Assembly: GCA_020279385.1 (NCBI GenBank) | Contig: GCA_020279385.1_4762.1 | Source: a phage | Direction: 5' to 3' (one strand) | Length of the DNA stretch: 64,000 nt | Shown: one piece after another, positions 4,165-60,316 of the stretch | Numbering within the stretch: the first letter of the stretch is position 1 | How the letters are laid out: each line of letters starts with the position of its first letter | Program-made: the position numbers and the translations under genes | Notes under the pieces: generated by a model | Databases searched by the model: none | Told to the model about the DNA's origin: nothing | What the model saw: the letters and a program-made list of their open reading frames with translations, nothing else

Positions 4165-4472
4165 TCTGGAAACTTCCCGTAAATGTTCTCTGCCAACATA
4201 CGCGCATCGCTAATGATATCTTTCATGCTATGACCGTAGTGTTCAGCCATTGAGTTGACACAATCAACAAAGAAATTATAACGGCGACGGTTTAAGATTT
4301 CTTCTCTGTTATAGTTTTCATATTTGACGGTCGAGTGTGCTTTCTCGATTGCCTTGATCGCTATATTGACTTCATTGATAATGGTTTTAGCATTGTATGC
4401 GCCACGACGGATCAGGATATTTGTCAATTCTCTTGCAATATCTTGCAATTCTTCATATTCATGTTCAAACAT
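4161..4472 (-). CDS. Hypothetical protein (103 aa; start moved to internal ATG with SD)
   Basis: SD GAGAGGT before ATG at 4472; track ORF extends to 4493 from a TTG. Confidence 0.55.
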   Translation of the reverse strand: MFEHEYEELQDIARELTNILIRRGAYNAKTIINEVNIAIKAIEKAHSTVKYENYNREEILNRRRYNFFVDCVNSMAEHYGHSMKDIISDARMLAENIYGKFPE

Positions 4473-4496
4473 AATCAACCTCTCAAAATACAATCC

Positions 4497-6489: not shown

Positions 6490-6517
6490 AATATATTCCT
6501 TAATGTTTTGTCTTGAT

Positions 6518-6552
6518 GGGAGTATCTTACTACTCCCTTAATCCGGTGTCAA
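6518..6552 (-). promoter_or_regulatory. Early sigma70-type promoter with stem-loop (PeSL-like) upstream of the LprI-like gene
   Basis: rc reads TTGACA-17nt-TAAGAT; inverted repeat GGGAGTA/TACTCCC flanks the -10. Confidence 0.65.
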
Positions 6553-6560
6553 CTATTTTT

Positions 6561-6716: not shown

Positions 6717-6747
6717 TTTGATTCTCCTTCGTTGTCTTGATGAGTTC

Positions 6748-6776
6748 ATTGTAGGGGATCGGCGATCCCCTGTCAA
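6748..6776 (-). promoter_or_regulatory. Early promoter with spacer palindrome (PeSL-like)
   Basis: rc TTGACA-GGGGATCGCCGATCCCC-TACAAT; perfect palindrome fills the 17-nt spacer. Confidence 0.65.
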
Positions 6777-6786
6777 CAACTATTTT

Positions 6787-6999
6787 TTAATTTTTACCCG
6801 CTCGTGCATTAATACGCATTTTCTGAATAGCCATGATCTGGCTTACTGCTTCTTCTTTACGTTCTTGCGTGATAACGTGACCAGATTCCGCAAACTCTCC
6901 CGCAACTTCTTCTACGATCTCGCGAACTTGAGAACGTCCAAAGATGCGGTTTCCTTCGTAGCCCATAAATTCAGTCACTACTTGCTCAATAGATTTCAT
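6787..6999 (-). CDS. Hypothetical protein (70 aa)
   Basis: SD AAGGAG upstream. Confidence 0.55.
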   Translation of the reverse strand: MKSIEQVVTEFMGYEGNRIFGRSQVREIVEEVAGEFAESGHVITQERKEEAVSQIMAIQKMRINARAGKN

Positions 7000-7026
7000 G
7001 TGATTCTCCTTCTTTCGTTTCGGTAT

Positions 7027-7061
7027 GGGAGTATCTTACTACCGACGACCTTTGGCGTCAA
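7027..7061 (-). promoter_or_regulatory. Early sigma70-type promoter
   Basis: rc TTGACG-17nt-TAAGAT followed by ACTCCC as in other cassettes. Confidence 0.6.
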
Positions 7062-7235
7062 CTAATTTTTATGGAATTTTAAATTATCTTCGACCTTCAC
7101 CCATTCCGCGTATTCTTGCGCGGCTACTTTCGGATTTAGGCCGTCTTCGTACATTGCTTCAAGTAATTCTTCGTCGGTGGGCTTATACCCTAGATAAGCC
7201 TCCACCTGATTTTTCCAAATTTTATACCAGTTCAT
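7062..7235 (-). CDS. Hypothetical small protein (57 aa)
   Basis: Internal ATG following stop of upstream gene; start uncertain. Confidence 0.4.
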   Translation of the reverse strand: MNWYKIWKNQVEAYLGYKPTDEELLEAMYEDGLNPKVAAQEYAEWVKVEDNLKFHKN

Positions 7236-7543: not shown

Positions 7544-7572
7544 ATTATGCAATGCTGGATTATGGAAGTCAA
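7544..7572 (-). promoter_or_regulatory. Early sigma70-type promoter
   Basis: rc TTGACT-17nt-CATAAT. Confidence 0.55.
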
Positions 7573-7583
7573 ACAACTTTTCA

Positions 7584-7612
7584 AATAAAAAAGCCGACCA
7601 CAAGGATCGGCT
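7584..7612 (-). terminator. Rho-independent terminator (- strand)
   Basis: Hairpin AGCCGACC-ACAA-GGATCGGCT with A-run on + strand (U-run on - strand transcript) just after stop at 7623. Confidence 0.7.
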
Positions 7613-7622
7613 TAATAGTCAG

Positions 7623-14589: not shown

Positions 14590-14619
14590 ATAAGTCAACC
14601 TTTTGTTTTCGATGGGGAC

Positions 14620-14648
14620 ATTATGATATATCCCCGATCCAGTGTCAA
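14620..14648 (-). promoter_or_regulatory. Early promoter with inverted repeat around -10 (PeSL-like)
   Basis: rc TTGACA-17nt-CATAAT; GGGGA/TCCCC arms flank the -10. Confidence 0.6.
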
Positions 14649-14655
14649 CAGATTT

Positions 14656-14955
14656 TTAATCTTTTTTCAATGCATCCATTACTCGCTCTGCGATCAGTTC
14701 TCGTAAGCACTGATAACCATGATATTTGATGGCAATGTCACGCAGATCATTAACCAGTTCCCGTACTTCATGGTCTTTCAGATCGTCTCTGTATTTCGAT
14801 TTAATCGTATCTTTAGGTGGATTGCGGATAACCTGAAAACCTTGTTCTGCAATCACTGCGGCTTCTCGCTGGCGTTCATGCTGTACTGTATTTTTGATCA
14901 GGTCTGCTTCCATGAACTTTGCCATACTCATCATCATGTTATTCTTTTTGCTCAT
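14656..14955 (-). CDS. Hypothetical protein (99 aa)
   Basis: SD GAGGA before ATG at 14955; longer track ORF overlaps the promoter. Confidence 0.55.
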   Translation of the reverse strand: MSKKNNMMMSMAKFMEADLIKNTVQHERQREAAVIAEQGFQVIRNPPKDTIKSKYRDDLKDHEVRELVNDLRDIAIKYHGYQCLRELIAERVMDALKKD

Positions 14956-17788: not shown

Positions 17789-18031
17789 TTAAATATCCTC
17801 CGCGATATGCCGGAACAACTCCAGATCGTTTTTATCCAGAATGAAACCGCTACAATCAATAATCCCGTTACCGTAATTATCGGTTAACAGTCGTTCCGTT
17901 GCCATGTATGCGCGTACTTTGTTGTTAAAATTCATTACATGTTGTGCATAGTCACAATGAATCTTTTGACGGTTCCACGCGACAATTGATTGTAGATGTA
18001 TTACATTAGCCACATTATTAATAACAACCAT
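17789..18031 (-). CDS. Hypothetical protein (80 aa)
   Basis: ATG coupled (TGAtATG) to upstream small ORF. Confidence 0.5.
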   Translation of the reverse strand: MVVINNVANVIHLQSIVAWNRQKIHCDYAQHVMNFNNKVRAYMATERLLTDNYGNGIIDCSGFILDKNDLELFRHIAEDI

Positions 18032-18087
18032 ATCAAAACCCTCGCTTAGTGGAATGTTCTGGCATTTTATTGATACATTCAGCTTGG
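18028..18087. repeat. Direct repeat copy A (~60 bp)
   Basis: catatcaaaacc-ctcgcttagtgg-aatg...attttattgatacattcagctt; ~85% identical to copy B. Confidence 0.6.
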
Positions 18088-18209
18088 TAGTCACGAGATT
18101 TTTTTGACGAATTAAGAGCTACAGCCAAAAAATCCTGTAACTGTTCGTTTGTCATTTTTGGCTTACACCGCGTATCTAAACCCTTCGTTCTTCTAGCTTC
18201 ATTAGCCAT
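18033..18209 (-). CDS. Hypothetical small protein (58 aa) with repeated C-terminal module
   Basis: rc reads MANEARRTKGLDTRCKPKMTNEQLQDFLAVALNSSKKSRDYQAECINKMPEHSTKRGF; not in ORF track. Confidence 0.45.
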   Translation of the reverse strand: MANEARRTKGLDTRCKPKMTNEQLQDFLAVALNSSKKSRDYQAECINKMPEHSTKRGF

Positions 18210-18266
18210 ATCAAAAACCTCGCTTAGTGAAATGCTCGATCATTTTATTGATACATGCAGCTTCAC
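18207..18266. repeat. Direct repeat copy B (~60 bp)
   Basis: catatcaaaaacc-tcgcttagtga-aatg...attttattgatacatgcagctt. Confidence 0.6.
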
Positions 18267-18378
18267 TATCGCCGGACACGTTCCAGCCGTATAGACCCCA
18301 TCTAAAGCACATGGTAACAGTTCCATTGTGACGGCTTACCGTCACATCATTAAATTCTGGGATACTTCGCATAATCAT
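18211..18378 (-). CDS. Hypothetical small protein (55 aa) with repeated C-terminal module
   Basis: rc reads MIMRSIPEFNDVTVSRHNGTVTMCFRWGLYGWNVSGDSEAACINKMIEHFTKRGF; SD GAGGAAA upstream. Confidence 0.45.
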   Translation of the reverse strand: MIMRSIPEFNDVTVSRHNGTVTMCFRWGLYGWNVSGDSEAACINKMIEHFTKRGF

Positions 18379-21448: not shown

Positions 21449-21496
21449 ATAATAAAACCATTATAGAGTAGTGTCAATCACAAAGTGTATGTGATC

Positions 21497-21504
21497 TATA
21501 AATA
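21497..21504 (+). promoter_or_regulatory. T4-type late promoter TATAAATA upstream of HNH endonuclease gene
   Basis: Exact TATAAATA about 30 nt upstream of ATG at 21534, then SD AGGAG. Confidence 0.6.
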
Positions 21505-21533
21505 AGTTTGCTAGAACTAAAGGAGACCACAAA

Positions 21534-22463
21534 ATGAACTATAAACGTATTTATGATAACCTGATTGAACGTGCTAAGACTAGAACTATCGACGGATATA
21601 CAGAAAAGCATCACATCATACCACGTTGTATGAATGGAAGCGATGATGATAGCAATCTAGTTAGACTCACCCCAGAGGAACATTACATTGCTCACCTTCT
21701 GTTAGTTAAGATTTACCCAGATAACAGTAAATTGGTTTATGCTGCAAATATGATGTGCGTTTCTTCTGATTCACATAATGGAGAAAGACAGTCAAATAAA
21801 CGTCATGGTTGGTTGCGTAGAAAAATGGCAGAGGCACATAGTAAAAGAATCCGCGATAGAATGGAGAACGATCCTGAATATAGAGCTAAGGTTTCGGAAT
21901 GGGCTAGAAAAATGGGTAAAGCCATGAAAGGAGTTAAGCGAGGACCGGAATTTAGCAGAAAGTTGGCAGAAAGAAACAGAAATACCGTGATGAAAGAAGA
22001 AACTAAACGTAAAATCGGGGAAGCCAACAAAGGAAGGAAACGTACAGAAGAATATAAAAGAAAACATAGTGAGCGGTATAAGGGTGAAGGTAATCCGATG
22101 TATGGTAAACGAGGAAAGGAACATCCGGCATATGGTACTAAACCGTGGAACAACCAAACATCATTTGTTGAGCAGAAAGCATGGTGGCGGTTCGCTGGCA
22201 TGTTCTATGACTGGTATCAGATGGATATTGACCGTGGGAAACATAAACGCCACGGTCATAAAAGAATGCTTGATGAATTGGGTTTTGTTGGTTGGCGAGA
22301 AAAAGAGCCAGCCGCAGCAAGACGATCAATTGAAATGTTTGCTAAAGGCTGGAATCCTTATGAAGACCAAGAATGGTTAGATTATATTAATACCCGCTTT
22401 CCAAACGACGATAGTTTTCCGCGTTCTTCAACATATACAAAACAAACAAATCCTTTGCAGTAA
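21534..22463 (+). CDS. Free-standing HNH homing endonuclease with NUMOD-like repeats
   Basis: HNH motif (EKHHIIPRCMNGSDDDSNLVRLTPEEHYIAH); repeated basic NUMOD-like modules; opposite strand to neighbours; 3' end overlaps gp56 3' end. Confidence 0.85.
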   Translation: MNYKRIYDNLIERAKTRTIDGYTEKHHIIPRCMNGSDDDSNLVRLTPEEHYIAHLLLVKIYPDNSKLVYAANMMCVSSDSHNGERQSNKRHGWLRRKMAEAHSKRIRDRMENDPEYRAKVSEWARKMGKAMKGVKRGPEFSRKLAERNRNTVMKEETKRKIGEANKGRKRTEEYKRKHSERYKGEGNPMYGKRGKEHPAYGTKPWNNQTSFVEQKAWWRFAGMFYDWYQMDIDRGKHKRHGHKRMLDELGFVGWREKEPAAARRSIEMFAKGWNPYEDQEWLDYINTRFPNDDSFPRSSTYTKQTNPLQ

Positions 22464-22911
22464 GACCTAATGCTAGGAATTTACACATAATAAAATGGAG
22501 TTGGTCCACCGCCTCTAGGTATGTTTCGAGACGATCCGCCTCTGGCAAATCACTAAAGAGGCGGTTTCGTGCTTCCATGTGATTTGCTTTCCAGTGTTTC
22601 CATACCGCGCTCGCGTCCTTCCCGTTAGACATTCCACCTAATGCAGTATACAATTCTCGTGTTTCGTCGTCAAGAGCATTATCATTCGCTCGAATAAAAT
22701 CTAAAATTTCTCCACACGTTTTCAATTCGTCAATTTTTGCTACCCACGGACGGTCCTTAGACACCTGATCCTGTAACGCTTTTTGCATATTCATCATGTG
22801 TTGGAACGGGTTATCACCGTTGGCGATGATTTCTTTATATTTTTCTTCTGCAAAATTCAGAGTTTCCGCATTTACTAAGTGTGCACAAGAATTAAATTCT
22901 GACATATTCAC
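22387..22911 (-). CDS. 56: dCTP pyrophosphatase gp56-like
   Basis: 174 aa, size and position (next to primase 61) match T4 gp56; assignment by synteny. Confidence 0.6.
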   Translation of the reverse strand: MNMSEFNSCAHLVNAETLNFAEEKYKEIIANGDNPFQHMMNMQKALQDQVSKDRPWVAKIDELKTCGEILDFIRANDNALDDETRELYTALGGMSNGKDASAVWKHWKANHMEARNRLFSDLPEADRLETYLEAVDQLHFIMCKFLALGLTAKDLFVLYMLKNAENYRRLESGY

Positions 22912-24889: not shown

Positions 24890-25525
24890 TCAAGCGAACG
24901 TAGAAAGCAAATGTTTTGTTTCTTTCAGTTGTCTTTCAAGATCTTTGCGTTTCTCTTTAAGTTGCATTTTAGCATTATTTCGCTGTTTTTCAACATCTTT
25001 ATCGATGTGCTTAGTCCAATTATCAATATCAGAATAAGTTGGCATACCCAATTCTAGACCTAATGCGGTTGGATACAGGGTAACAGTCCATAAACCGCTA
25101 ATCTTCTTAAATAGGTCTGGGTGTAGTGTACTATCTACATCTTCCGGTGTCAACTCTTTTTCTTCTTTCAGTGGTGGGATCTCGTCATATGGTTCCAGTG
25201 CATTTACTTTAATATCAGATACCTCATCAAAGAATCCGCGTACATCCGCAGGAAATACACAAGCAATTTCCCAACCGTGATCACGCAGAGAAGTAATATT
25301 TTTCACTCCCCCACCATGTGTGATGATTGATGTGACATTGCCATCAAGGTCCACCGAATTTACGAGAAATGGCTTATCGTCTGTCAGATCATTATAAAAC
25401 TGTGCTTCGGCTGTAGTCATCTCCAGAAACAGATCTCGGATCGGACGACCATCCGGTGCGTTACCTTCCTTGAGAGTATAAAAGCGACTTACGATCCATT
25501 TTGGCGGTAAAGCATTAGCGATCAT
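24890..25525 (-). CDS. Hypothetical protein (211 aa) in the T4 61.x position
   Basis: SD AGGAG upstream; between primase and helicase. Confidence 0.6.
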   Translation of the reverse strand: MIANALPPKWIVSRFYTLKEGNAPDGRPIRDLFLEMTTAEAQFYNDLTDDKPFLVNSVDLDGNVTSIITHGGGVKNITSLRDHGWEIACVFPADVRGFFDEVSDIKVNALEPYDEIPPLKEEKELTPEDVDSTLHPDLFKKISGLWTVTLYPTALGLELGMPTYSDIDNWTKHIDKDVEKQRNNAKMQLKEKRKDLERQLKETKHLLSTFA

Positions 25526-34149: not shown

Positions 34150-34548
34150 TTACGGGTTTACTTCGTGCTCATTTTGAATCTTTAGCATTCTTTCGATAAA
34201 TTTTTTCTCGGCTTCCTTATCGGATGAGTGAGTATACTTCAATCCAATGTAAGCTGTCAAGTATTGTTGCAGAGCATAGACAGTAACAGGATTCTTTGCG
34301 GTCTTTTTTCCGTCGAGATATACCAGATCACCACGAACATCAAACGCAAGTTTACGACGAATCACATCATCAACAAATTTATCTAGGACAAAATACCACT
34401 CAATACACTCTATCCCGTGACGGTAGTTCATTACATCATTATCTTTGATATAGTCAAACGGAATATGACATAATTTACTATTTTGTAGGATGAATAGCAT
34501 TTGTTCTTTTAAGCTCATACGTTTCATTCTATCACTTCCCATCAGCAA
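34150..34548 (-). CDS. Hypothetical protein (132 aa) at the rpbA position
   Basis: Position after gene 45; identity not established. Confidence 0.5.
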   Translation of the reverse strand: MLMGSDRMKRMSLKEQMLFILQNSKLCHIPFDYIKDNDVMNYRHGIECIEWYFVLDKFVDDVIRRKLAFDVRGDLVYLDGKKTAKNPVTVYALQQYLTAYIGLKYTHSSDKEAEKKFIERMLKIQNEHEVNP

Positions 34549-43130: not shown

Positions 43131-43656
43131 TCAAAAATTCAACTTCACGACGTTTAATATCTTCTTGAAGGTCTTTAATCTTCTGGCGATCTTGCATGAT
43201 TTCGTCCATCTTGTCAAGTGCTGCAATAAAATCATCGAAACGTTCAAAGGTTTTACCTTCATTTGCTTCGCCAAATTTAACCATTGTCAGACCATAACGA
43301 CTACTAAACAGACGTTTCAACTGTCCAACGATCTTAGAATCATCGTTCACCTTTTCTTCTGGTTCTTTCACTGTTTCAACTTCACGAAAGAATTTTCTAT
43401 CGAATGGACTAAAGAAATATGTTGCAGTCCAAATGTCTTTTCCTGTAGCAGTTTTCGCCGTATGATAAACACCGTCTAGCTCTATTGCATCAATCCATCC
43501 GTTACCCTCGATCTCGATGATGGTAAATGGCTTGTCACCAATAGCTGCACTAATATCGCTGTTAAGTGGAGAAAGAACACCTTCTCCGTTAGTAATAAAC
43601 TCAGTTTTAGCGTTTTCATCTTTCCAAGTGTAAGTTTTACCAATTTCCCATTTCAT
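43108..43656 (-). CDS. Paralog family A member 2 (182 aa)
   Basis: N-terminus MKWEIGKTYTWKD; PFTIIEIEG...IELDGVY core. Confidence 0.6.
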   Translation of the reverse strand: MKWEIGKTYTWKDENAKTEFITNGEGVLSPLNSDISAAIGDKPFTIIEIEGNGWIDAIELDGVYHTAKTATGKDIWTATYFFSPFDRKFFREVETVKEPEEKVNDDSKIVGQLKRLFSSRYGLTMVKFGEANEGKTFERFDDFIAALDKMDEIMQDRQKIKDLQEDIKRREVEFLIGEERGW

Positions 43657-43668
43657 AATATATTCCCC

Positions 43669-44148
43669 TTAACCGATTTTATCAAGTTCGTTTAATGCTT
43701 TCTCTGCTTCCTGTATAGCTTGCACCCTTTCCGGCATTTTGTCAAGAAAATCTTTCAACTCTTCAAAACTGGAGATATGACGCAAGGCGTTAGCACCGAT
43801 AGCCGCATGTGATTTGCATTCAAAGCGGATTTTATAATTATCCATCGCCAACTTGAGAAGATCAATTAATTTAGATTCTTCTGGAATAATAATTTCTTCA
43901 AATCTGCTACGGTCATGATCCAGAAACCAACAAGATAGACCTACATCGGTTGAACTCATATAAGTTCCATCATGAAGATAAACAGACCGCACGTATCCTT
44001 TTTTCGCATCAACCGACGCAACTTTAAACGGTAATCTCAGATATTTCAAATAATCAACATCATACCATTTAAAAAATTGGTTTGCATCTTTTACATCTTT
44101 CCACGCATAGGTCTTACCAGCTTCCCATTTCATAATATCATCTCTCAT
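43669..44148 (-). CDS. Paralog family A member 3 (159 aa)
   Basis: MKWEAGKTYAWKD motif (after short N-extension); PFKVASVD core. Confidence 0.6.
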   Translation of the reverse strand: MRDDIMKWEAGKTYAWKDVKDANQFFKWYDVDYLKYLRLPFKVASVDAKKGYVRSVYLHDGTYMSSTDVGLSCWFLDHDRSRFEEIIIPEESKLIDLLKLAMDNYKIRFECKSHAAIGANALRHISSFEELKDFLDKMPERVQAIQEAEKALNELDKIG

Positions 44149-44674
44149 TTTTGATACGTGATTCTAATTGGATCATACGGTCGCGCGTTTGTTTGTATTC
44201 TCGGATAGCACCGATCCGGCTAGGCATACCATCCAGTACGCTCTTAATACCTTCTAGGGTAGTAATTTTGGCAATGCTATTATGTAACCCCATCTTATCG
44301 ATCAACTGAATGTCGTAGGCTTCCATAAGCAGACCCAGTCGTTCTAAAGTTAGGTCTTCTTCTTTTTCTTCCGAATCTGGAATCTTAGGTTCAATAGTAA
44401 CTTCGGTAAAGAAACGACGCTCACCTGCCCAAAACCACACGCCGGAACAGCCAATAGGGGATTCTTTTAACGTCATAGAGTCGAAATTACTACCAATAAT
44501 AGTAATTTCTCTAACATCACCATCATCGTCAAGGTCTTCTACCCTAAACGGGCGACCAGCCAACAAGTCAACAATACATCTGTTAATAGACGACGAAAAT
44601 TTAGTCAGTTCGGCTTTCGACGCTTCGCATTCAATCTTGTAAGTTTTACCAACTTCCCATTCCATAATAATCAC
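44138..44674 (-). CDS. Paralog family A member 4 (178 aa)
   Basis: MEWEVGKTYKIE motif; PFRVEDLD core. Confidence 0.6.
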   Translation of the reverse strand: MIIMEWEVGKTYKIECEASKAELTKFSSSINRCIVDLLAGRPFRVEDLDDDGDVREITIIGSNFDSMTLKESPIGCSGVWFWAGERRFFTEVTIEPKIPDSEEKEEDLTLERLGLLMEAYDIQLIDKMGLHNSIAKITTLEGIKSVLDGMPSRIGAIREYKQTRDRMIQLESRIKNER

Positions 44675-45321: not shown

Positions 45322-45363
45322 GTTCGATTCTCCTGTAAAGTTGTATCTCGTCTTGATGAATAT

Positions 45364-45392
45364 AGTATAGGGGATCTCGCGATCCCCGTCAA
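45364..45392 (-). promoter_or_regulatory. Early promoter with spacer palindrome (PeSL-like)
   Basis: rc TTGACG-GGGATCGCGAGATCCCC-TATACT. Confidence 0.6.
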
Positions 45393-45396
45393 GCGT

Positions 45397-45930
45397 TTAT
45401 TTTAAATTTTTTCGAATGTATTCAGACCATTCCTTCCCTGTCATTTCGGACCCGTTCTGGAAACTGAAATATTCATACGGCATCGAGTCAAGATAAAACA
45501 GGATCATACATCGCGCCATATAATACCAATCACGATTAAAGTAAACTACGTTATCACCAGTACCATCAGCACCTTTATCATAACCATCTCGGGTACGGGC
45601 GACCCATTGAATAGTATCATTTTTCTCACGGATAGTCACAGGTTCCCAATATCCAGCACATCCAGCATGACCACACGAACAAGTAAGGAAATATTGCCCT
45701 TTTGCTTTGTTGTCATCCCATTCACGATGGATTGGTTCGATCTCGTGAAACAGTGCCAAACAATCATGATTATGCAACACTGGCTTACCATCAATCAATG
45801 CATGGAATGTATACAAACGACCAGTAGACAAATAGCTATCCTCGCGCTCACAGAGTTCAATAGCAATCTTTTTAGCTCGTTCTTTGTGTCGTTGTGCTTT
45901 ACGTTTACGGTTTAATGATTTCATAGTCAC
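45397..45930 (-). CDS. Hypothetical protein (177 aa), Cys/His-rich
   Basis: ORF on early strand. Confidence 0.55.
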   Translation of the reverse strand: MTMKSLNRKRKAQRHKERAKKIAIELCEREDSYLSTGRLYTFHALIDGKPVLHNHDCLALFHEIEPIHREWDDNKAKGQYFLTCSCGHAGCAGYWEPVTIREKNDTIQWVARTRDGYDKGADGTGDNVVYFNRDWYYMARCMILFYLDSMPYEYFSFQNGSEMTGKEWSEYIRKNLK

Positions 45931-45941
45931 CTCACATTATT

Positions 45942-46346
45942 TCAAAGATCGCGATATTGTACATTATGAAAATGAGAACTTGCATTACCAATATTGTAGA
46001 TAATAAATTCTTCATCCGGCGCTTGCGCTACAAATTGAGTATGAGCAACCGCCACAACCTTAAAAATACGATCCGTGATCTTGTGTTTAATTTCTGCCCC
46101 TACTTCCATAGGAACATATTCATTTGTTTCTGTTTCAGTCGCAAAACAGCCATCTTCTTCATAAGCACGAACAAATCGGTCGCAATCAGTACGCTTAACA
46201 AATTCAAGAGTATATAATTCTCGTGAATTGTCGGTATAGACCAATACAGAATTATTATGATAGCGAATCACATACAGGTTATTATCATCGTCAATTACGC
46301 AAAAGCTACGGATTCCTTCGCCTTGACTCCAGCAGATATTAACCAC
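45942..46346 (-). CDS. Hypothetical protein (134 aa)
   Basis: ORF on early strand. Confidence 0.55.
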   Translation of the reverse strand: MVNICWSQGEGIRSFCVIDDDNNLYVIRYHNNSVLVYTDNSRELYTLEFVKRTDCDRFVRAYEEDGCFATETETNEYVPMEVGAEIKHKITDRIFKVVAVAHTQFVAQAPDEEFIIYNIGNASSHFHNVQYRDL

Positions 46347-46480
46347 CGTTCCTCTAATAAAAAACTTTCCTTTAAATTAAAACTAGTCAATGTGCTAGCG
46401 TGCATTTTAACAACAACACCATCGCCAATTTCCAGTTTACGAAGTTTAACTTCTTTGCTCAGTACACAAAACATCATCAT
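46295..46480 (-). CDS. Hypothetical protein (61 aa from ATGATGATG)
   Basis: SD AGAGAGG upstream; longer track ORF overlaps the promoter. Confidence 0.45.
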   Translation of the reverse strand: MMMFCVLSKEVKLRKLEIGDGVVVKMHASTLTSFNLKESFLLEERWLISAGVKAKESVAFA

Positions 46481-46508
46481 GTTGTCCTCTCTTTGTTTCG
46501 ATGTGAGC

Positions 46509-46536
46509 ATTATACATGAGCTAATCATGTTGTCAA
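46509..46536 (-). promoter_or_regulatory. Early sigma70 promoter (part of repeated terminator-promoter module)
   Basis: rc TTGACA-16nt-TATAAT directly downstream of the nrdD terminator. Confidence 0.6.
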
Positions 46537-46542
46537 CACCCC

Positions 46543-46574
46543 AAAACGAAAAAGCCGACCCTTTCGGATCGGCT
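46543..46574 (-). terminator. Rho-independent terminator after nrdD
   Basis: - strand RNA AGCCGAUCC-GAAA-GGGUCGGCU then UUUUCGUUUU. Confidence 0.75.
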
Positions 46575-48486: not shown

Positions 48487-48981
48487 TTATTTTACCAGTT
48501 CTGCTAATTCTTTTTCCGCCGCTTCCAGTTCAGCTTTCAGTTGTTTGATCTCTTGTCGCTTCTTATTAGCGGCTTCCTGCTTACTATTTCGGATAATCTG
48601 ATCTAGATATGAATCCCACTCCTGAATATTTTTGATAATGTAACCGTCAACATTAATTGGTCGGAGATTTAGTACAGCTTCCAGTTTAGTTGCAAAAACT
48701 TTAATTGCTGGTGTGAAGTATTCATACTCGTTATCTTCAAACCAATAACCTAGACTTGCATTATCAATACGAAGACGAAGTTTAAGATCAAGGTCTTTAT
48801 CTTCGGTGTAAAGATCTTTCACCTGCCCCATCGAGCTAACAACAACTTTAAAACGAATTTTATCTACACCGCCAAAAACATCTTCAAGAATATCAGCAAT
48901 TGAGCTATTAGCGCAAGATTGGTCGCTGAATGCGTCAAGATTTTCTTTAGTTACAGTATACCAAATATCTTGTTTCCACAT
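48487..48981 (-). CDS. Paralog family A-related protein (164 aa)
   Basis: ANSSIADILEDVFGG...IRFKVVV core and C-terminal coiled coil resemble 42624-44674 genes. Confidence 0.55.
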   Translation of the reverse strand: MWKQDIWYTVTKENLDAFSDQSCANSSIADILEDVFGGVDKIRFKVVVSSMGQVKDLYTEDKDLDLKLRLRIDNASLGYWFEDNEYEYFTPAIKVFATKLEAVLNLRPINVDGYIIKNIQEWDSYLDQIIRNSKQEAANKKRQEIKQLKAELEAAEKELAELVK

Positions 48982-49011
48982 AATATAATCCTCTCGTTGT
49001 TAAGTGGGAGT

Positions 49012-49039
49012 ATTATAGCATACTCCCTTTGCATGTCAA
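49012..49039 (-). promoter_or_regulatory. Early promoter with inverted repeat around -10 (PeSL-like)
   Basis: rc TTGACA-16nt-TATAAT; GGGAGTA/TACTCCC arms. Confidence 0.65.
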
Positions 49040-50214
49040 GCACCAACTTTTTTCTTTACTGCTTTCACCTTCTGGCGAATTGCTCGAATCTCTTCGATCT
49101 CTTTTTCAGTCTCTTTAACAATTTCTTTGCGATTCTGAATATCTGTATCGAGATTATCATCAAGTTTAGGCAGCATGTCAATCAAGAACTTTTTAAGGTC
49201 TTTCAGGTTTCGGATAACAGCACCTTCACCCATTACCGCAACACCAACACCATCCGGCAGATCACCAAACAGTTTAACCAGTTCAGACAGATGATCATGG
49301 TCTTCTAATGCTTCCTCCGGTTCAGATGGCAGTTCAACAAAGTTATAACGTTCATCATTGCTGATCAAGTGATACCAGCAAAGCCCGAAAGATTTCGGTG
49401 TATATTCTACACCATCAATTTCAACCGCGTCAACACTTCCATAATCATCTACTTTAGTTACCTTAAATCCTTGTCCCAGCTTTTGAACAATTTCAACAAC
49501 ATGACTTGATACAGTTTCAGCGGTAAACCAATATGGCAAATTATGCTGATTTGGCTTGTAGCGTTCACCTACTTTAAATCTCTGACCATCCGCTTGCATA
49601 GAATGAAATTGTTGTTTCGTGATTTCCGCGAAGTATTCAAATTCGCCACCATCAAACACACAAGCCCATTGATCACAAAAACGATCTGCCTTAACAGTTT
49701 CACCTTTCGCGGTGATCATGGTAGCCGATCCATGAAATTCTTCTTCAACTAAAAAGCCATATTCGACAAAATCAACAAGTTTCATAGCTTCTTTGTGGTC
49801 TGGATCATGCTCTCCCCAGAATCGCTTAAATTCTTGCAAACCTTCTGGGGTAAACGAATAACATTTACCTTTTTCAAAGTAAGTCGGCATTGCATCCTCT
49901 TTCTTGTTCATCGCTTCGTATGCCTCTTTTGAGATGCGTTTAAAGTATTTACGCTCATTGTGCATAATCATAGTGGCCCAATAATCAACAATATCATTAG
50001 CGGAATAAACTACATCTCCAGCTTCAATAGTAATAACATGACCGTGGTCATCTTTTTCTAATACTTTAAAGCCCTTTTCTACGATTTCAGCAACCCGAAT
50101 ATGACCACGGCGCGAAGCATCGGTCAGAATAATTGAATAGCGAGAAAAGTCTAGAAACTCATCTTTACCGCCTTCACGGAATGCATAGTAATGACCTTCA
50201 AAGAATTTAGCCAT
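49036..50214 (-). CDS. Paralog family A-related protein (392 aa) with internal duplication
   Basis: Two copies of KGFKV...G.V..IE.DG.EY module. Confidence 0.6.
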   Translation of the reverse strand: MAKFFEGHYYAFREGGKDEFLDFSRYSIILTDASRRGHIRVAEIVEKGFKVLEKDDHGHVITIEAGDVVYSANDIVDYWATMIMHNERKYFKRISKEAYEAMNKKEDAMPTYFEKGKCYSFTPEGLQEFKRFWGEHDPDHKEAMKLVDFVEYGFLVEEEFHGSATMITAKGETVKADRFCDQWACVFDGGEFEYFAEITKQQFHSMQADGQRFKVGERYKPNQHNLPYWFTAETVSSHVVEIVQKLGQGFKVTKVDDYGSVDAVEIDGVEYTPKSFGLCWYHLISNDERYNFVELPSEPEEALEDHDHLSELVKLFGDLPDGVGVAVMGEGAVIRNLKDLKKFLIDMLPKLDDNLDTDIQNRKEIVKETEKEIEEIRAIRQKVKAVKKKVGA

Positions 50215-50244
50215 AATATAATCCTCTCGTTGTTAAGTGGGAGT

Positions 50245-50273
50245 ATCTTACTACTCCCGTTTCATCATGTCAA
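50245..50273 (-). promoter_or_regulatory. Early promoter with inverted repeat around -10 (PeSL-like)
   Basis: rc TTGACA-17nt-TAAGAT; GGGAGTA/TACTCCC arms. Confidence 0.65.
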
Positions 50274-50836
50274 GCGTTAAATGACTTTTGGATCTCTTTC
50301 AGTTCAGCTACTTTATCGGCGCTGAATTTAGCGTAGGTATCATGTCGAATAATTTCACTTTCAAGAAAGGTTTCCAGCCGAGATCTATTTTCAATAAGGA
50401 ACTCTTTCAGGTCTTCCGCGTTCTTGATAAAGATTTTATTGTCAGTAATGTCATCTTCAATCGCAAAGGAGATAGAGCGAACTTTACCAAACAAGTTAAT
50501 CAGATCTTCCAGCGATTCTTCTTTCTTAACTGGTTTCATTTCTTCAAACTGCTTTTTAGTGATTCGTTTAAAGTATTTGCGCTCGCTTGCGTCAATCATG
50601 ATTGACGCGCCCTCATAATCATGAGTTTCTACCAAATACACTTTACCCATAACATTAACCGTAAGAACTTTAAAGCCCCTGTGAAGCACACCATACAGGA
50701 ACTTGTTATGTTGTGGATAGCGTTTGATAAATTCCTCTGCGGACTCAGCATTACGGAAAGTGTAATAACGACCTCGTTCAAAAACAGCATCATTTGAAGA
50801 CTTAGCTGGATACAATTTATACGTTTTCTGTACCAT
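50270..50836 (-). CDS. Paralog family A-related protein (188 aa)
   Basis: RGFKVLTVNVMGKVYLVETHDYEG and ERKYFKRITK shared with the 49036 gene; SD GAGGA. Confidence 0.55.
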   Translation of the reverse strand: MVQKTYKLYPAKSSNDAVFERGRYYTFRNAESAEEFIKRYPQHNKFLYGVLHRGFKVLTVNVMGKVYLVETHDYEGASIMIDASERKYFKRITKKQFEEMKPVKKEESLEDLINLFGKVRSISFAIEDDITDNKIFIKNAEDLKEFLIENRSRLETFLESEIIRHDTYAKFSADKVAELKEIQKSFNA

Positions 50837-51123: not shown

Positions 51124-51154
51124 TGTTGATTCTCCTTCTTGATTAGATGGGAGT

Positions 51155-51183
51155 ATTTTACTACTCCCATTTCTTATTGTCAA
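51155..51183 (-). promoter_or_regulatory. Early promoter with inverted repeat around -10 (PeSL-like)
   Basis: rc TTGACA-17nt-TAAAAT; GGGAGTA/TACTCCC arms. Confidence 0.65.
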
Positions 51184-51186
51184 CTA

Positions 51187-51660
51187 CTATCTTAATCTTT
51201 GTATAAATTGTTTCTTATACTTCTTCGTGATCTCTTCTCTTGTATCCGCGTCACAGTAATCGAAACCTTCTGCGTCCATAATAGCAACCATCTCCGAGCG
51301 TGTCAAGCGTGAAAATCGTTTTACTTTATCAACAGCATATTGAGGATGTAAATGATTGTTGGTGTAGTCTCCTTTGATGTAATTAACATAGTTTGTAGCC
51401 CAAACAACGAAATCAGCACCTAAAGCACCAACACCAAACCGTTTAAAGTCTCCGGTCAACGATCCTTCTAGGCGGTTGCAACACGAATGAAGCAATCCCC
51501 TTACGCGGCCTTGCCCTTTCCCATCTAGATCATGATCATGGTCAAGATGGTTTTTGCTCATATCCTCAAAAAGTGGCAATTGACAAAGGGGGCAAATGCC
51601 CCCCTGTTTTTCGAATAGTTCTTGTTTATACTCTTTAGCACTCTTAGCAGTCAGTAACAT
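51187..51660 (-). CDS. 49: Endonuclease VII gp49 (Holliday junction resolvase)
   Basis: Zinc-binding CPLCQ...HLDHDHDLDG...VRGLLHSCCN and C-terminal identity to T4 gp49; SD GGAGGGTGA. Confidence 0.9.
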   Translation of the reverse strand: MLLTAKSAKEYKQELFEKQGGICPLCQLPLFEDMSKNHLDHDHDLDGKGQGRVRGLLHSCCNRLEGSLTGDFKRFGVGALGADFVVWATNYVNYIKGDYTNNHLHPQYAVDKVKRFSRLTRSEMVAIMDAEGFDYCDADTREEITKKYKKQFIQRLR

Positions 51661-51967: not shown

Positions 51968-52723
51968 TTATACCTCATTCAGTTCTATATCAAGTTCATT
52001 TTCAATAATATAGGCATTAACTGCCCGTGCCGCATCATCTTCTGTGTCAAATCTTCCTATATACACACCGCGAACTTTAGCACCGTAATTACCTTGTTTT
52101 GGTACTTTGTAAACGTATCTATGACGGGAACTTGCTGCTTTTTGGAGCTTCTTGCCATATTCAGACTTTGCATATTCTATATCATCAATCTCGTTTATAC
52201 AAGACCTATCACCAAAATGTTTCAACGCTGCAAGATTATATGCATACGCCGCACCGATCTCGGAGGGAAAATATCCTAAATGTATAGACTTCCCATCCAA
52301 CATTATTGCACCAGTCCAATAACCTTTATTCTTATTAAACGACACACCTTTATACTTCGAATATGTTTTGCATTTGGTCTTGCTCATATTCATATTATTT
52401 TGTTTGCTTGTCGTCTCTCTAAGGTTTTCAATGCGGCTATTATAACGATCTCGGTCTTTATGATCTATATACTTAGGACAATGACCATGAAACATATGAT
52501 AGATAACACGGTGCATACGTTCGTATCGCTCGCCAGTCCATACAATACGATACCCATCGGGGGTATCACTTCCAGCTAATCCGTTTATAACACCTTTTCG
52601 GTGCGGGTGAATCTTCCACCTAAGAAAACCATCATCATAATAAAACCGTGAATGATATAAATCATACAAACGTTTATCTTCTGGAGTCTTGTGTATAACA
52701 TCATATTTTAACATTGGTGACAT
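51968..52723 (-). CDS. HNH endonuclease with AP2 DNA-binding domains (homing endonuclease-like)
   Basis: HNH motif (IDHKDRDRYNSRIENLRETTSKQNNMN); two AP2-like segments (YKGVSFNKNKGYWTGAI..., KVRGVYIGRFDTEDDAARAVNAY). Confidence 0.8.
   Translation of the reverse strand: MSPMLKYDVIHKTPEDKRLYDLYHSRFYYDDGFLRWKIHPHRKGVINGLAGSDTPDGYRIVWTGERYERMHRVIYHMFHGHCPKYIDHKDRDRYNSRIENLRETTSKQNNMNMSKTKCKTYSKYKGVSFNKNKGYWTGAIMLDGKSIHLGYFPSEIGAAYAYNLAALKHFGDRSCINEIDDIEYAKSEYGKKLQKAASSRHRYVYKVPKQGNYGAKVRGVYIGRFDTEDDAARAVNAYIIENELDIELNEV
51968..52723 (-). mobile_element. Free-standing HNH-AP2 endonuclease gene inserted between nrdC and dam
   Basis: Homing-endonuclease architecture in an intergenic position of conserved genes. 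Confidence 0.6.
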
Positions 52724-53516
52724 AAACTTCCTTAGTATCGGATTTTTTACCCCCGCTACGATCTAAACAATATGTTTTATCCAGTTCAACAACAGAAACA
52801 TCATTACGTTCGATAAAATCAAGCAAATGGTTGTTAACTTTCCCTTTGTGGTGAGTAACATTGCTTAATCCAAACTTAGTACCGCTAGACATTAATGATT
52901 CTATCCACATGTAGAATTTAATCTCTTCTTCTTCACTCCAGAACTTATTATATTCTGCCGACGTGATCCAATATGGCGGATCAAGGAAAACGAAATCATC
53001 CGGCAAGATCTCGATCTCGTCATAGCGACCAGACGTAAAACTGATTCGACCGTCTTTGTTTTCTTCCTTAAAATTCAGGACACGCTCTACCGCGTTTTCG
53101 TTAAAAGTCCGGCGACCAAAATTAGCATTAAATTCTCCCTTCCGGTTATGGCGGTTAATGTTGCTAAAACTGTGCTGAATCAGAACAAACAGAGATAGCG
53201 GATCTGGATTCTCGTTATACTTCTTGCGGAATGCCATGTAAGCATCTTTATCATCACGAGACAAATCATTTTCGGCAATAATCCGCTTGATCGTAGAAAC
53301 CGGATCAGGACACTCGTCAATCGCTTTGTACGCGTCAATTAAGCGGTGATCATAGTCATTCGCCAGAACATCCCCTTCGACGTACAGAGACACGCTCAAG
53401 CCGCCACAAAAGGCATCAACAAAGCGGTTATAGTGCTTAGGGAAATACTTACTAACACCTGGCAATAACTTTTCCTTATTGCCAGTATAGGGAATTAAAC
53501 CTAATGCTTTCTTCAT
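52701..53516 (-). CDS. dam: DNA adenine methyltransferase (Dam-like, N6-adenine)
   Basis: SAM-binding FxGxG (DAFCGGLSVS) and catalytic DPPY (FLDPPYW); 271 aa. Confidence 0.85.
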   Translation of the reverse strand: MKKALGLIPYTGNKEKLLPGVSKYFPKHYNRFVDAFCGGLSVSLYVEGDVLANDYDHRLIDAYKAIDECPDPVSTIKRIIAENDLSRDDKDAYMAFRKKYNENPDPLSLFVLIQHSFSNINRHNRKGEFNANFGRRTFNENAVERVLNFKEENKDGRISFTSGRYDEIEILPDDFVFLDPPYWITSAEYNKFWSEEEEIKFYMWIESLMSSGTKFGLSNVTHHKGKVNNHLLDFIERNDVSVVELDKTYCLDRSGGKKSDTKEVYVTNVKI

Positions 53517-55074: not shown

Positions 55075-55108
55075 AATATAATCCTCACATCGTTCATTTG
55101 ATGCGGTC

Positions 55109-55137
55109 ATTATATGATAACCGCATTTTCATGTCAA
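55109..55137 (-). promoter_or_regulatory. Early promoter with inverted repeat around -10
   Basis: rc TTGACA-17nt-TATAAT; GCGGT/ACCGC arms. Confidence 0.6.
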
Positions 55138-55144
55138 CAGTTTT

Positions 55145-55567
55145 TTAAAAATCTTCTTCCGGTTTATATCGACCGTCATCGACTGGTTTTGGACTGAATC
55201 CTTTATGCGTGCGCGGCTTCGCTTCCGGTTTACCAGCAATCATCAAACCAAAACATTTCAGCCCCTTATAACACATAACAATATCAACCACGATCCACGT
55301 TATAGGCCATAAGATTGCAGCAATACAAAATGCTCCTGTATCGACCTCTTTGGTGTCCTTGTCGAATCTGGCGTACAAGCAGAATACTAGATACGAGATC
55401 ATTGCACCAGTAGTCCAGATATAAAGCACATTAACAATATCTTGTGTTGTCACATTATCCTCCTTACATGTCTTGCAGTGCATAAAAGCATTTTTCTTCA
55501 TAGTCATAGAAAATGTCAAAGTATGCTTTTTCCACATACTCGCCATTAATCCAAGCGGCAGTAACAA
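55145..55567 (-). CDS. Membrane protein (up to 140 aa; start uncertain)
   Basis: Two hydrophobic helices; overlaps upstream ORF, true start probably internal. Confidence 0.45.
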   Translation of the reverse strand: MLLPLGLMASMWKKHTLTFSMTMKKNAFMHCKTCKEDNVTTQDIVNVLYIWTTGAMISYLVFCLYARFDKDTKEVDTGAFCIAAILWPITWIVVDIVMCYKGLKCFGLMIAGKPEAKPRTHKGFSPKPVDDGRYKPEEDF

Positions 55568-55742: not shown

Positions 55743-55784
55743 TTTGATTCTCCTTAAGAAAGTGTGTTTCGTTTTGATGTGTGT

Positions 55785-55813
55785 AGTATAGGGGATACGT
55801 GATCCCCTGTCAA
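55785..55813 (-). promoter_or_regulatory. Early promoter with spacer palindrome (PeSL-like)
   Basis: rc TTGACA-GGGGATCACGTATCCCC-TATACT. Confidence 0.65.
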
Positions 55814-55821
55814 CAATTTTT

Positions 55822-56085
55822 TTATGATTTTAGTGAATTAACCACTACATCAAAATGATGTACAGAGCACACCCTACGAAACACATATTCATCATGTTTC
55901 GGAATCGCCCCCAACCGCTTTATTTCGCTCGCTGACACGATAAACCGTTTATCAGGTGCATTTACCTTATATGCTTCAACAACGCACGGAAAACGCGTTT
56001 TAGAGAGTTCGGGATAGTTTTCTGACTCCATCAGGACAATGAATACCCTATTACATTGATTGTAGAATCCGGTTTTTGATTTCAT
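55822..56085 (-). CDS. Hypothetical protein (~87 aa; start uncertain)
   Basis: ORF on early strand. Confidence 0.45.
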   Translation of the reverse strand: MKSKTGFYNQCNRVFIVLMESENYPELSKTRFPCVVEAYKVNAPDKRFIVSASEIKRLGAIPKHDEYVFRRVCSVHHFDVVVNSLKS

Positions 56086-56392: not shown

Positions 56393-56646
56393 AGTTTCCT
56401 CAACCAGTTATTAAAGCGAGTAAACCATGATGCTTTTCGTGCTTCTTTTACTTTATGTGCCCGCAAACCACTGAAACACCATTCATAATCATCACTGAAA
56501 CATGATTCAACAGGAACACCCGCATTTCGTAGTTCTCTGGTCTTTATCATGAATCCTTGACATAAGGGGCGACCTTCAACAATGATAGGAAGTTTAACTT
56601 TTTCCATGAAAGTATACCCAGCACGGTCAATAATTTCAATCTTCAT
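56389..56646 (-). CDS. Paralog family B member (85 aa)
   Basis: GYTFMEKVKLPIIVEGRP...AGVP motif shared with 56665 and 58115 genes. Confidence 0.55.
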   Translation of the reverse strand: MKIEIIDRAGYTFMEKVKLPIIVEGRPLCQGFMIKTRELRNAGVPVESCFSDDYEWCFSGLRAHKVKEARKASWFTRFNNWLRKL

Positions 56647-56664
56647 AATATAATCCTCAATTGA

Positions 56665-56868
56665 TTACACTTCCCAGGCTTCTTTGCTAAGAAAACACCA
56701 TTTATACTCAGGAGAATAACCTTTAATCGGTACTCCAGCTTTTTGTAATTCCTGCGTTTCAACAACATAATCATGCCCATACGGTCGGCCTTCCACGATG
56801 ATAGGAAGTTTAACACCTTTCATGAAAGAATATCCACCATCGTCAAAAATTTCAATTTTAATTTTCAT
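56665..56868 (-). CDS. Paralog family B member (67 aa)
   Basis: GYSFMKGVKLPIIVEGRP...AGVP motif. Confidence 0.55.
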   Translation of the reverse strand: MKIKIEIFDDGGYSFMKGVKLPIIVEGRPYGHDYVVETQELQKAGVPIKGYSPEYKWCFLSKEAWEV

Positions 56869-58053: not shown

Positions 58054-58083
58054 ATTTGATTCTCCTTAGTTGGTATGGTTATC

Positions 58084-58111
58084 ATTATACGGGGATTTCT
58101 CCCCGTGTCAA
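58084..58111 (-). promoter_or_regulatory. Early promoter with spacer palindrome (PeSL-like)
   Basis: rc TTGACA-CGGGGAGAAATCCCCG-TATAAT. Confidence 0.65.
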
Positions 58112-58114
58112 CAA

Positions 58115-58336
58115 TTAAATGATCTCTGCTTCACCGTTAAGGAAGAAAGACCATGTTTTGTTAGGATAACGAAGCGCCCACGATTCAGCAGTTTTAACAC
58201 CAGCTTCGAACAATTGACGGCTGGTTACTTTAGCCATACCATCTTCGATGGCAACGTTTTCAATAATCATCGGGTACTTAGCGCCACGCATGAAACCGAA
58301 GCCAGCGGAAGATTTGATAATTTTAACAGTTGCCAT
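58115..58336 (-). CDS. Paralog family B member (73 aa from ATG)
   Basis: GFGFMRGAKYPMIIEN...AGV motif; SD AGGAG. Confidence 0.55.
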   Translation of the reverse strand: MATVKIIKSSAGFGFMRGAKYPMIIENVAIEDGMAKVTSRQLFEAGVKTAESWALRYPNKTWSFFLNGEAEII

Positions 58337-59390: not shown

Positions 59391-59589
59391 TCTTCACGGT
59401 CTCCATAATGGTTTTGTAAGCCAGTTTAAGATGATCACCGAAAAACTTTGCGGTGTTACCCTTCGGATCGCGGAGCATGGTTTCTACGATCTCATCGGCA
59501 GTAACAATTTCTCCTTTCTTTGCTGAATGTTCTACCATATACTTCAAAGTTTCTTCGGAAGCAAGTGCTGCCGCTACTGGATTAATCAT
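59380..59589 (-). CDS. Hypothetical protein (69 aa)
   Basis: ORF on early strand. Confidence 0.5.
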   Translation of the reverse strand: MINPVAAALASEETLKYMVEHSAKKGEIVTADEIVETMLRDPKGNTAKFFGDHLKLAYKTIMETVKNAK

Positions 59590-59619
59590 TTTTGATTCTC
59601 CTTTGTTTTCGATGTGTGC

Positions 59620-59648
59620 ATTATGCTATACCCTATTCCGGTTGTCAA
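59620..59648 (-). promoter_or_regulatory. Early sigma70 promoter (part of repeated terminator-promoter module)
   Basis: rc TTGACA-17nt-CATAAT directly downstream of the terminator hairpin. Confidence 0.6.
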
Positions 59649-59652
59649 CACC

Positions 59653-59684
59653 TAAAAACGAAAAAGCCACCCTTTCGGATGGCT
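59653..59684 (-). terminator. Rho-independent terminator
   Basis: - strand RNA AGCCAUCC-GAAA-GGGUGGCU then UUUUUCGUUUUU; near-identical to the module at 46543-46574. Confidence 0.7.
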
Positions 59685-59917
59685 TTTGATTATATTTTAT
59701 TCACGTCCATTTGTATAGTAGTGTTTGAATCGACCTTTGCTAAACTAGTTAAACATAGTAACCAATTCACCATCCCTTTCCAATGATAACCCTTCCTCGT
59801 CTTAGACGGGTCTTCCGATTCGGCAGTAATTGAACACGCGAAAGTATGAGGAAGCCAAATAGTTGTGTTAATGCTAGTATTCTTTTACTTCTGGTATGCA
59901 TCCCACGGTGACTAACA

Positions 59918-60316
59918 TTAAGACAGTCGAGTGAGTTTATAAATTGTTTTAAAACATAGAGCTTTGATATCGTCTAAAACGCTCTGTAACGAGCTATCAA
60001 CATCATTATAAATCTCACTAGCCATTTGCGTTAACTCTTGCAAATAGGCAATTTCGCTAATCTCCTTGCGGACGACCAACGTTGGCTGATAACGACCAGT
60101 GATCCCAATATTGGTTTCAGTGAAATCATCAACCAATTCTTGCATTTCAAGATAGAACTCTTCTAGAGCCTTATGTTTTGCATAAGATCCAGGACCAGTT
60201 ACCCCAAAATGCGCAGAATGCATATAAGTAACACTCATCAGACATTCACCGATAAAGCGGTCAACTTTATTAGCTTTCCCCTCTTCGGACGTCTTTCGAA
60301 AATCACTGAATTTCAT
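59918..60316 (-). CDS. Hypothetical protein (132 aa)
   Basis: ORF on early strand. Confidence 0.55.
   Translation of the reverse strand: MKFSDFRKTSEEGKANKVDRFIGECLMSVTYMHSAHFGVTGPGSYAKHKALEEFYLEMQELVDDFTETNIGITGRYQPTLVVRKEISEIAYLQELTQMASEIYNDVDSSLQSVLDDIKALCFKTIYKLTRLS

Follow-up and report, generated by a model that had tools for sequence, protein, structure and literature searches.

The promoter-early stem-loop (PeSL) was defined in 2010 in phages RB49 and phi1 (Arbiol et al., PMC2839356) as a repeated cassette of ~100 bp that combines a near-consensus sigma-70 promoter with a terminator or attenuator stem-loop, and a 2014 follow-up extended the family to other T4-like phages (Comeau et al., PMC4122927). 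About 50 copies are present per genome, mostly in hyperplastic regions, their stems include G-T pairs, and the position of the stem-loop divides them into five subclasses, one of which, not the commonest, carries it upstream of the -35 box (PMC2839356). A polyG...polyC stem and an A/T-rich upstream tract are frequent in PeSLs but not obligatory (PMC2839356, PMC4122927), and stems of the GGGGATC and GGGAGTA types are both 'typical' of the published forms. PeSLs have been proposed to serve as linkers for modular shuffling and for the formation of mini-circles, and nrdD and hoc are listed among the genes associated with them (PMC2839356). Promoter and terminator activity was shown for PeSL211/210, 193/192 and 206/205 only, and one tested stem-loop, other than the two that are the subject of this report, terminated transcription in vivo on par with rrnB T1 (PMC2839356). 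The early promoters of RB49 listed by Nolan et al. (2006) include Pe:34495 and Pe:47746, which correspond to sites A and B of the present analysis, and Pe:45336, which corresponds to a sibling termed X below; the same authors reported a TransTerm terminator at 34499-34518 ('RB49ORF055c<--nrdD', confidence 100), which is site A of RB49.

Two related terminator-promoter modules of a Krischvirus genome

The 64-kb stretch of DNA that was analysed as a whole (the window) belongs to Krischvirus, the RB49-like T4-type coliphages, and is 98-99% identical to KFS-EC, KMB43, RB49, phi1 and JSE. An initial annotation, made from the sequence alone, had singled out near-identical modules at two loci, each with a GAAA tetraloop and a G-U wobble on the minus strand. 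The two strings that it quoted are located on the plus strand at 46529-46574 (site A) and 59641-59685 (site B), and the segments read 46574-46531 and 59685-59643 on the minus strand, which also encodes the genes around both sites. Their resemblance is borne out by pairwise alignment: the minus-strand sequences align over 41-46 nt with about 90-93% identity, and a blastn-short search of the window with the A module returned site B as a 41-nt match (92.7%, E=6.6e-9), together with a second block of 18 nt (94%) over the -10 box and 5'UTR. A gapped alignment that starts at the hairpin reaches as far as the ATG, ~100 nt in all, with a weaker likeness in the -10 box, 5'UTR and Shine-Dalgarno sequence. 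Within the core, A is separated from B by two substitutions and by the loss of one entire G-C stem pair, a compensatory double deletion that leaves the structure intact; no exact match is longer than 14 nt (GGCTTTTTCGTTTT).

Both hairpins have the predicted tetraloop and wobble when folded, and both are joined, across a gap of 14-15 nt, to the -35 box of the next early promoter, as the initial annotation had described. The hairpin of site A (-16.5 kcal/mol, z -3.33) has six GC pairs among its nine and is followed by TTTTCGTTTT in the terminator scan, and that of site B (-16.6 kcal/mol, z -4.94) has 11 pairs and is followed by TCGTTTTTAG; no shuffled sequence folded as well as either of them. 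The site B core at 59684-59665, which can be extended to 59687-59662, has the stem and loop of site A minus one G-C pair, and its U-tract is UUUUCGUUUUUAGGUG. At each site, therefore, a GC-rich hairpin with a U-rich tract directly after it lies downstream of a gene, as in an intrinsic terminator. Both modules are intergenic: site A extends from the nrdD stop codon (46580) to a leader of ~28 nt that carries GAGAGG and ends at the ATG (46480), and site B lies between the stop codon of a Hoc-like gene relic and the ATG at 59589 (Table 1). The third terminator of like build that had been noted at 7.59 kb (site C) is real (-12.7 kcal/mol, z -3.5), having the stem arms of site A with a different loop and linker. 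In an independent consensus scan, A and B came out ahead of all other terminator-like sites on the minus strand from 44.5 to 64 kb, and a scan for a hairpin, a T-run and a promoter in succession found A, B and C to be the only clean units in the window, with one loose case at 63.5 kb.

Table 1. Positions of the modules, their siblings and other repeated or rearranged features of the window.
Feature	Position	Strand	Basis or remark
nrdD stop codon	46582-46580	minus	5 nt before the site A hairpin
Site A terminator hairpin, AGCCGAUCC-GAAA-GGGUCGGCU	46553-46574	minus	9 pairs, one U-G wobble; fold and terminator scan
Site A U-tract and linker, UUUUCGUUUUGGGGUG	46537-46552	minus	sequence; ~1-16 nt upstream of the -35 hexamer
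Site A early promoter: TTGACA 46536-46531, 16-nt spacer, TATAAT 46514-46509	46509-46536	minus	consensus 12/12
Site A 5'UTR, Shine-Dalgarno GAGAGG, ATG 46480-46478	46478-46508	minus	start of the RB49 ORF055c ortholog
Hoc-like gene relic (full gene ~715 aa, PHROG 1149)	59690-59917	minus	comparison with intact relatives
Site B terminator hairpin, (AAA)AGCCAUCC-GAAA-GGGUGGCU(UUU)	59662-59687	minus	fold, terminator scan, GenBank annotation
Site B rest of U-tract and linker, UCGUUUUUAGGUG	59649-59661	minus	sequence
Site B early promoter: TTGACA 59648-59643, 17-nt spacer, CATAAT 59625-59620	59620-59648	minus	consensus 11/12
Site B 5'UTR, Shine-Dalgarno AGGAG, ATG 59589-59587	59587-59619	minus	start of a 69-aa ORF (PHROG 16283)
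Site C: hairpin AAGCCGAUCC-UUGU-GGUCGGCUU 7614-7590, TTGACT 7572-7567, 17-nt spacer, CATAAT 7549-7544	7544-7614	minus	fold and scan
PeSL replacing the gp38-like cassette in the window	58078-58114	minus	stem-loop between -35 and -10 (58111-58084)
PeSL repeat copies, first group	6734-6794, 14606-14666, 45350-45410, 55095-55155, 55771-55831		
PeSL repeat copies, second group	6517-6560, 7026-7069, 25118-25161, 50238-50281, 51148-51191		
Tandem small-gene arrays	43593-44670, 56567-56862, 18028-18263, 49907-50584		
Window-versus-RB49 indels and replacements	21477-22883, 7077-7080, 51977-52800, 4274-4494, 17836-18342, 43342-43375		
Junction members A and B			shared stem
Junction member X			hairpin GGCUAUCC-UUCG-GGGUAGCC
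Junction member Y			hairpin ACCCCGAAAA...UUUUCGGGGU
Junction member RB_46712			hairpin AGUCGCC...GGCGACU
Junction member RB_151436			hairpin AGCCAAUU...GUUGGCU

The likeness of A and B exceeds what chance or common function would give, and identity is above the level of independent terminators. The 23-nt junction motif TTTTYGTTTTNNGGTGTTGACAA occurs in two copies in the window with up to three mismatches, versus 0.01 expected from shuffles. Of the 210 pairs that can be formed from the window's 21 intergenic promoter modules, A-B scores highest (97, the next being 66). When only the sequence upstream of the -35 box is compared, the A-B score of 52 is followed by 27 (A-C), with a 95th percentile of 18, whereas the promoter and leader half of the same pair ranks seventh of 210, the usual level for the family. 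The upstream half being outstanding and the promoter half ordinary, the excess similarity of A and B sits in the terminator and U-tract. Genome-wide in RB49, A-B is the second of 66 pairs of terminator-first modules (94, others scoring 98, 93 and 91).

Sites A and B are very probably PeSLs, of the subclass that has a canonical intrinsic terminator just upstream of the -35 box. Each has a near-consensus sigma-70 promoter with a spacer of 16 or 17 nt and an adjoining stem-loop that ends 14-15 nt before the -35 box; modules of this kind are numerous (at least 21 in the 64-kb window, and the PeSL repeat families D1, D2, D9, D13 and D19), with the A-B similarity extending over ~100 nt; and the genome is of the RB49/phi1 group. 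A polyG...polyC stem and an A/T-rich upstream tract are absent: the stems read GCCGAUCC/GGGUCGGC, and the tract upstream, being the U-tract of the terminator, is T-rich. In the GenBank record of GEC-3S, each of the two sites has an annotated promoter, -35 box, -10 box and terminator; the site B terminator is also annotated in G2248, TB34 and the Makalu phages.

Several other features of the window were recorded. The gene driven by promoter A, an ortholog of RB49 ORF055c (45942-46480, minus strand), is frameshifted: a run of six A at 46359-46364 is found where RB49 and GEC-3S have seven bases, and the 178-aa ORF is broken into two, making this either a true pseudogene or a homopolymer sequencing error. 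Repeats of the PeSL class have GGGGATC...GATCCCC stems lying between the -35 box and the -10 box or GGGAGTA...TACTCCC stems that overlap the -10 box. The Dam site GATC occurs 370 times in the window, versus ~227-268 expected by composition, and a Dam methylase is encoded between sites A and B in relatives; in the PeSL cores, the enrichment of GATC (8.8 versus 5.8 per kb) was not significant (P = 0.075). A minus-strand translation-start motif, GAGGATTATATTATG, recurs at the starts of many small genes: the leaders at 48979-49013 and 50212-50246 are 100% identical over 35 nt, and similar motifs are located at 5404, 13913, 27291, 50825, 53943, 55070, 56634, 57740 and 62399. Paralogous small genes also form short tandem arrays (repeat families D4, D8, D12 and D16), in which segments that are 67-88% identical recur with a spacing of 180-630 nt.

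A junction subfamily with discordant halves

For comparison within the family, the RB49 genome was pieced together from four sequence retrievals. It contains 13 terminator-then-promoter composites, six of which, at unrelated loci, have the junction TTTTYGTTTTnnGGTGTTGACAA with at most two mismatches, attached to five different hairpins (Table 1). The search for the module elsewhere also found the junction motif at three further loci in IMG/VR. The term portable, which the initial annotation had applied to this stop-start unit, suits a junction with such a distribution, the more so as sibling X accompanies a gp38-like gene. Compensatory (double) changes are found in five of eight consensus pairs among the junction siblings; an RNAalifold consensus of seven siblings, the alignment of which is disturbed by differences in stem length, was put to qualitative use only. 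The attachment of different stems to one junction shows that selection acts on structure and not on sequence, and because function leaves the stem free to vary among the siblings, that A and B have their stem in common is due to common descent and not to functional need. The terminator and junction halves of A and B are probably descended from one ancestor through an old duplication or exchange that preceded the sampled Krischvirus genomes.

When the modules are split at the -35 box, the two halves point to different partners. The best left-half partner of A is B and that of B is A (52, the next scores being 31-35). For the right half, the module nearest to A is RB_151436 (51), those nearest to B are C and RB_46712 (48), and the A-B score is 41. 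Further pairs of modules have a hairpin in common but another linker, or a promoter spacer in common but another hairpin. This discordance, seen over segments of just 40-60 nt, is suggestive of mosaics such as occasional recombination between PeSLs would give.

Stability of sites A and B, and possible exchange of cassettes

Both sites are present at the same positions and on the same strand in all 59 public Krischvirus records, separated by 12.15-13.98 kb in the 11 records whose coordinates were compared. The differences that are diagnostic of A versus B (the base-pair indel, GG versus UA before GGUG, and spacers of 16 versus 17 nt) are unchanged in the window, RB49, GEC-3S and ECD7, the four genomes compared base by base, on which ground concerted evolution of the two sites was rejected. 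Origin of the module from the host was also rejected: the segment from the A hairpin to the -35 box has no match among 5,426 complete E. coli genomes. Beyond Krischvirus, there are weak matches only (E about 0.002-0.006 over 37-68 nt, in records of Citrobacter, Stenotrophomonas and Aeromonas phages). Sites A and B appear to have been stably inherited since their duplication or exchange.

The 230 nt that separate rI.-1 from the site B hairpin carry no annotation in most records. The Hoc-like relic identified there preserves a frameshifted stretch of ~140 nt from the 5' end of the gene, 35 nt of its interior and its final 12 codons (GRFKHYYTNGRE-stop). The gene is apparently intact in five of the 59 Krischvirus genomes (G2248, JK32, Brandy, SSG23 and SFHK24), the Hoc-like annotation having been checked for G2248 and JK32 and the break being at the same point in the other three; the remaining genomes examined have the relic. 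Because the last codons and stop of the Hoc-like gene adjoin site B, site B is taken to be the native terminator of this gene, in agreement with the listing of hoc as a PeSL-associated gene (Arbiol et al. 2010, PMC2839356). Loss of the Hoc-like gene was by deletion inside the gene, not mediated by a PeSL. Other candidates for the 230 nt were rejected: a structured RNA (fold z = -1.36, not significant) and a 44-aa ORF, which is not conserved, its ATG being ATA in GEC-3S and ECD7. No credible match to Rfam was found in the whole window at the gathering threshold or in 59560-59960 at E<=1, and a scan for tRNA and tmRNA found none.

A cassette that is present in some relatives and missing here was seen elsewhere in the window. 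In GEC-3S, ECD7, RB49 and JK32, ~910 bp that are absent from the window lie between the equivalents of its positions 58077 and 58115, comprising a terminator, a second gp38-like tail-fibre adhesin gene and terminator-promoter unit X; in JSE, a gp38-type gene is likewise annotated at the equivalent position. The downstream junction of this cassette falls in the common leader AUACCAACUAAGGAGAAUCAAA. A gp38-like paralog in the tail-fibre region (2441-2828), in the opposite orientation, is 67-81% identical.

The initial annotation had also proposed that A and B are a substrate for cassette exchange. The published model of PeSLs in these phages lends this idea support for the class as a whole, for which a role as recombination linkers is plausible, and no exchange was found for the A-B pair itself. 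That the pair is an active substrate, kept alike by gene conversion or recombining now to yield a 13-kb deletion or mini-circle, is improbable. Recombination and mini-circles are both part of the PeSL model, and T4-type recombination needs <50 bp of homology (PMC2839356), but perfect identity between A and B does not exceed 14 nt. The mosaic halves point to exchange in the past, whereas the constancy of the A-B differences in the four genomes indicates orthologous stability and not homogenisation. Three breakpoints between the window and RB49 are at PeSLs (21477, the first base of a -35 box; 7077-7080, adjoining the repeat copy 7026-7069; and 58077-58115); no indel of the window versus RB49 or GEC-3S has its breakpoint at A or B, no A×B recombinant was found, and both sites are kept in every one of the genomes. 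Since the interval between the two sites holds the genes of endonuclease VII, nrdC, dam and nrdD (according to the annotation of GEC-3S), an A×B deletion would remove all of these and would probably not be viable. Stable inheritance of two old, homologous modules is therefore preferred.

If the PeSL model is right, such cassettes would be the linkers through which small accessory genes, among them host-range genes like that of the gp38-like adhesin beside sibling X, enter and leave the genomes of T4-type phages with the transcription of neighbouring genes undisturbed. This would be relevant to phage evolution and to the engineering of therapeutic Krischvirus phages.

Predicted function and comparison with known systems

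By analogy with the assays of other PeSLs, sites A and B would stop the transcription that reaches them on the minus strand and restart it. Host RNA polymerase leaving nrdD (site A) or the Hoc-like gene, whether whole or a relic (site B), would meet the GC-rich GAAA-tetraloop hairpin followed by UUUUUCGUUUU, and the transcript would be released. At 14-15 nt further on, the near-consensus sigma-70 promoter would start a new early transcript, the short leader of which is conserved and supplies the small ORF that follows with a Shine-Dalgarno sequence. In this way, the unit would insulate adjacent expression cassettes from each other.

There is little to recommend the alternative that the hairpins are not terminators, being instead stabilisers of mRNA 3' ends against exonucleases, RNase processing sites or sites at which a recombination protein recognises the DNA, with the promoter adjacent by coincidence. 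Stable GNRA hairpins at 3' ends protect mRNA too, but stabilisation of mRNA is compatible with termination and no substitute for it. The U-tract is on the sense strand only, the tail on the plus strand being A-rich, which fits termination of minus-strand transcription. Arbiol et al. speculated that a DNA-binding protein targets PeSL stem-loops (PMC2839356), whereas the sibling stems vary by compensatory change beside an invariant U-tract, which argues for an RNA structure and not a DNA motif, and the activity of another PeSL stem-loop in vivo, equal to that of rrnB T1, was that of a terminator (PMC2839356).

It is scarcely credible that A and B are unrelated and were made alike by the constraints on strong terminators and consensus sigma-70 promoters: AGCC...GGCUUUU stems with UUCG or GNRA loops are common among RB49 terminators and the promoter/UTR half of the pair is merely typical of its family, but four sibling junctions (X, Y, RB_46712 and RB_151436) function with wholly different stems, the upstream-half score is 52 where the 95th percentile is 18, and A and B have the same loop, the same wobble position and an identical 14-nt U-tract/linker, their one stem difference being a clean deletion of a base pair. 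The sequence shows A and B to be homologous, each made up of a hairpin, a U-tract and a consensus promoter in an intergenic position, and to be conserved across the genus.

The hairpin, UUUUYGUUUU, nnGGUG, TTGACAA and the gap of 14-16 nt, which recur together at six loci in RB49 and two in the window, might even constitute a coupled 'terminate and re-initiate' device, although this is a long shot when taken as a whole, that is, with the T-tract as an UP-like element, polymerase recaptured 15 nt downstream and the junction as a crossover point. UP elements are rich in A/T, lie at -40 to -60 and make a promoter more active by binding the alpha C-terminal domain. By position, the terminator T-tract of both sites falls in or close to this zone, with which the U-tract and linker of site A overlap in part, and the T-tract might, speculatively, double as an UP-like element. 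Crossover at the junction would, speculatively, reassort terminator and promoter halves between cassettes.

The observation of the A and B modules, and its reading as a stop-start unit, are correct and have been in the literature for the same phage group since 2010. The additions made here are small: a terminator half common to A and B, a junction subfamily of six members with fixed geometry, halves that are discordant, and the Hoc-like relic.

In comparison with described PeSLs, A and B have in common the genus, the TTGACA-N16/17-TATAAT promoter, a stem-loop with G-U pairing, placement between a stop codon and a Shine-Dalgarno sequence and ATG, a length of ~100 bp, many copies, the association with nrdD and hoc, and the proposed roles of terminator or insulator and of recombination linker. 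They differ from typical members in having GCCGAUCC/GGGUCGGC stems instead of the GGGG...CCCC type, and a full canonical terminator, U-tract included, upstream of the -35 box, where the sequence is T-rich and not A-rich. They resemble the Rho-independent terminators of E. coli and phages in their GC-rich stems of 8-9 bp, GNRA tetraloop, five U in the next 8 nt and location 5 nt after a stop codon; unlike these, they stand at a fixed distance of 14-16 nt from a promoter and belong to a repeated, partly homologous family. As in morons (Hendrix et al. 2000) and the linkers of Botstein and Campbell, a gene is provided with its own promoter and terminator, and conserved linkers of the Botstein/Campbell kind could likewise direct recombination to harmless intergenic sites. 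However, a moron is a foreign gene that brings its own signals between flanks that are not conserved, whereas in PeSLs the regulatory cassette itself is conserved (PMC2839356).
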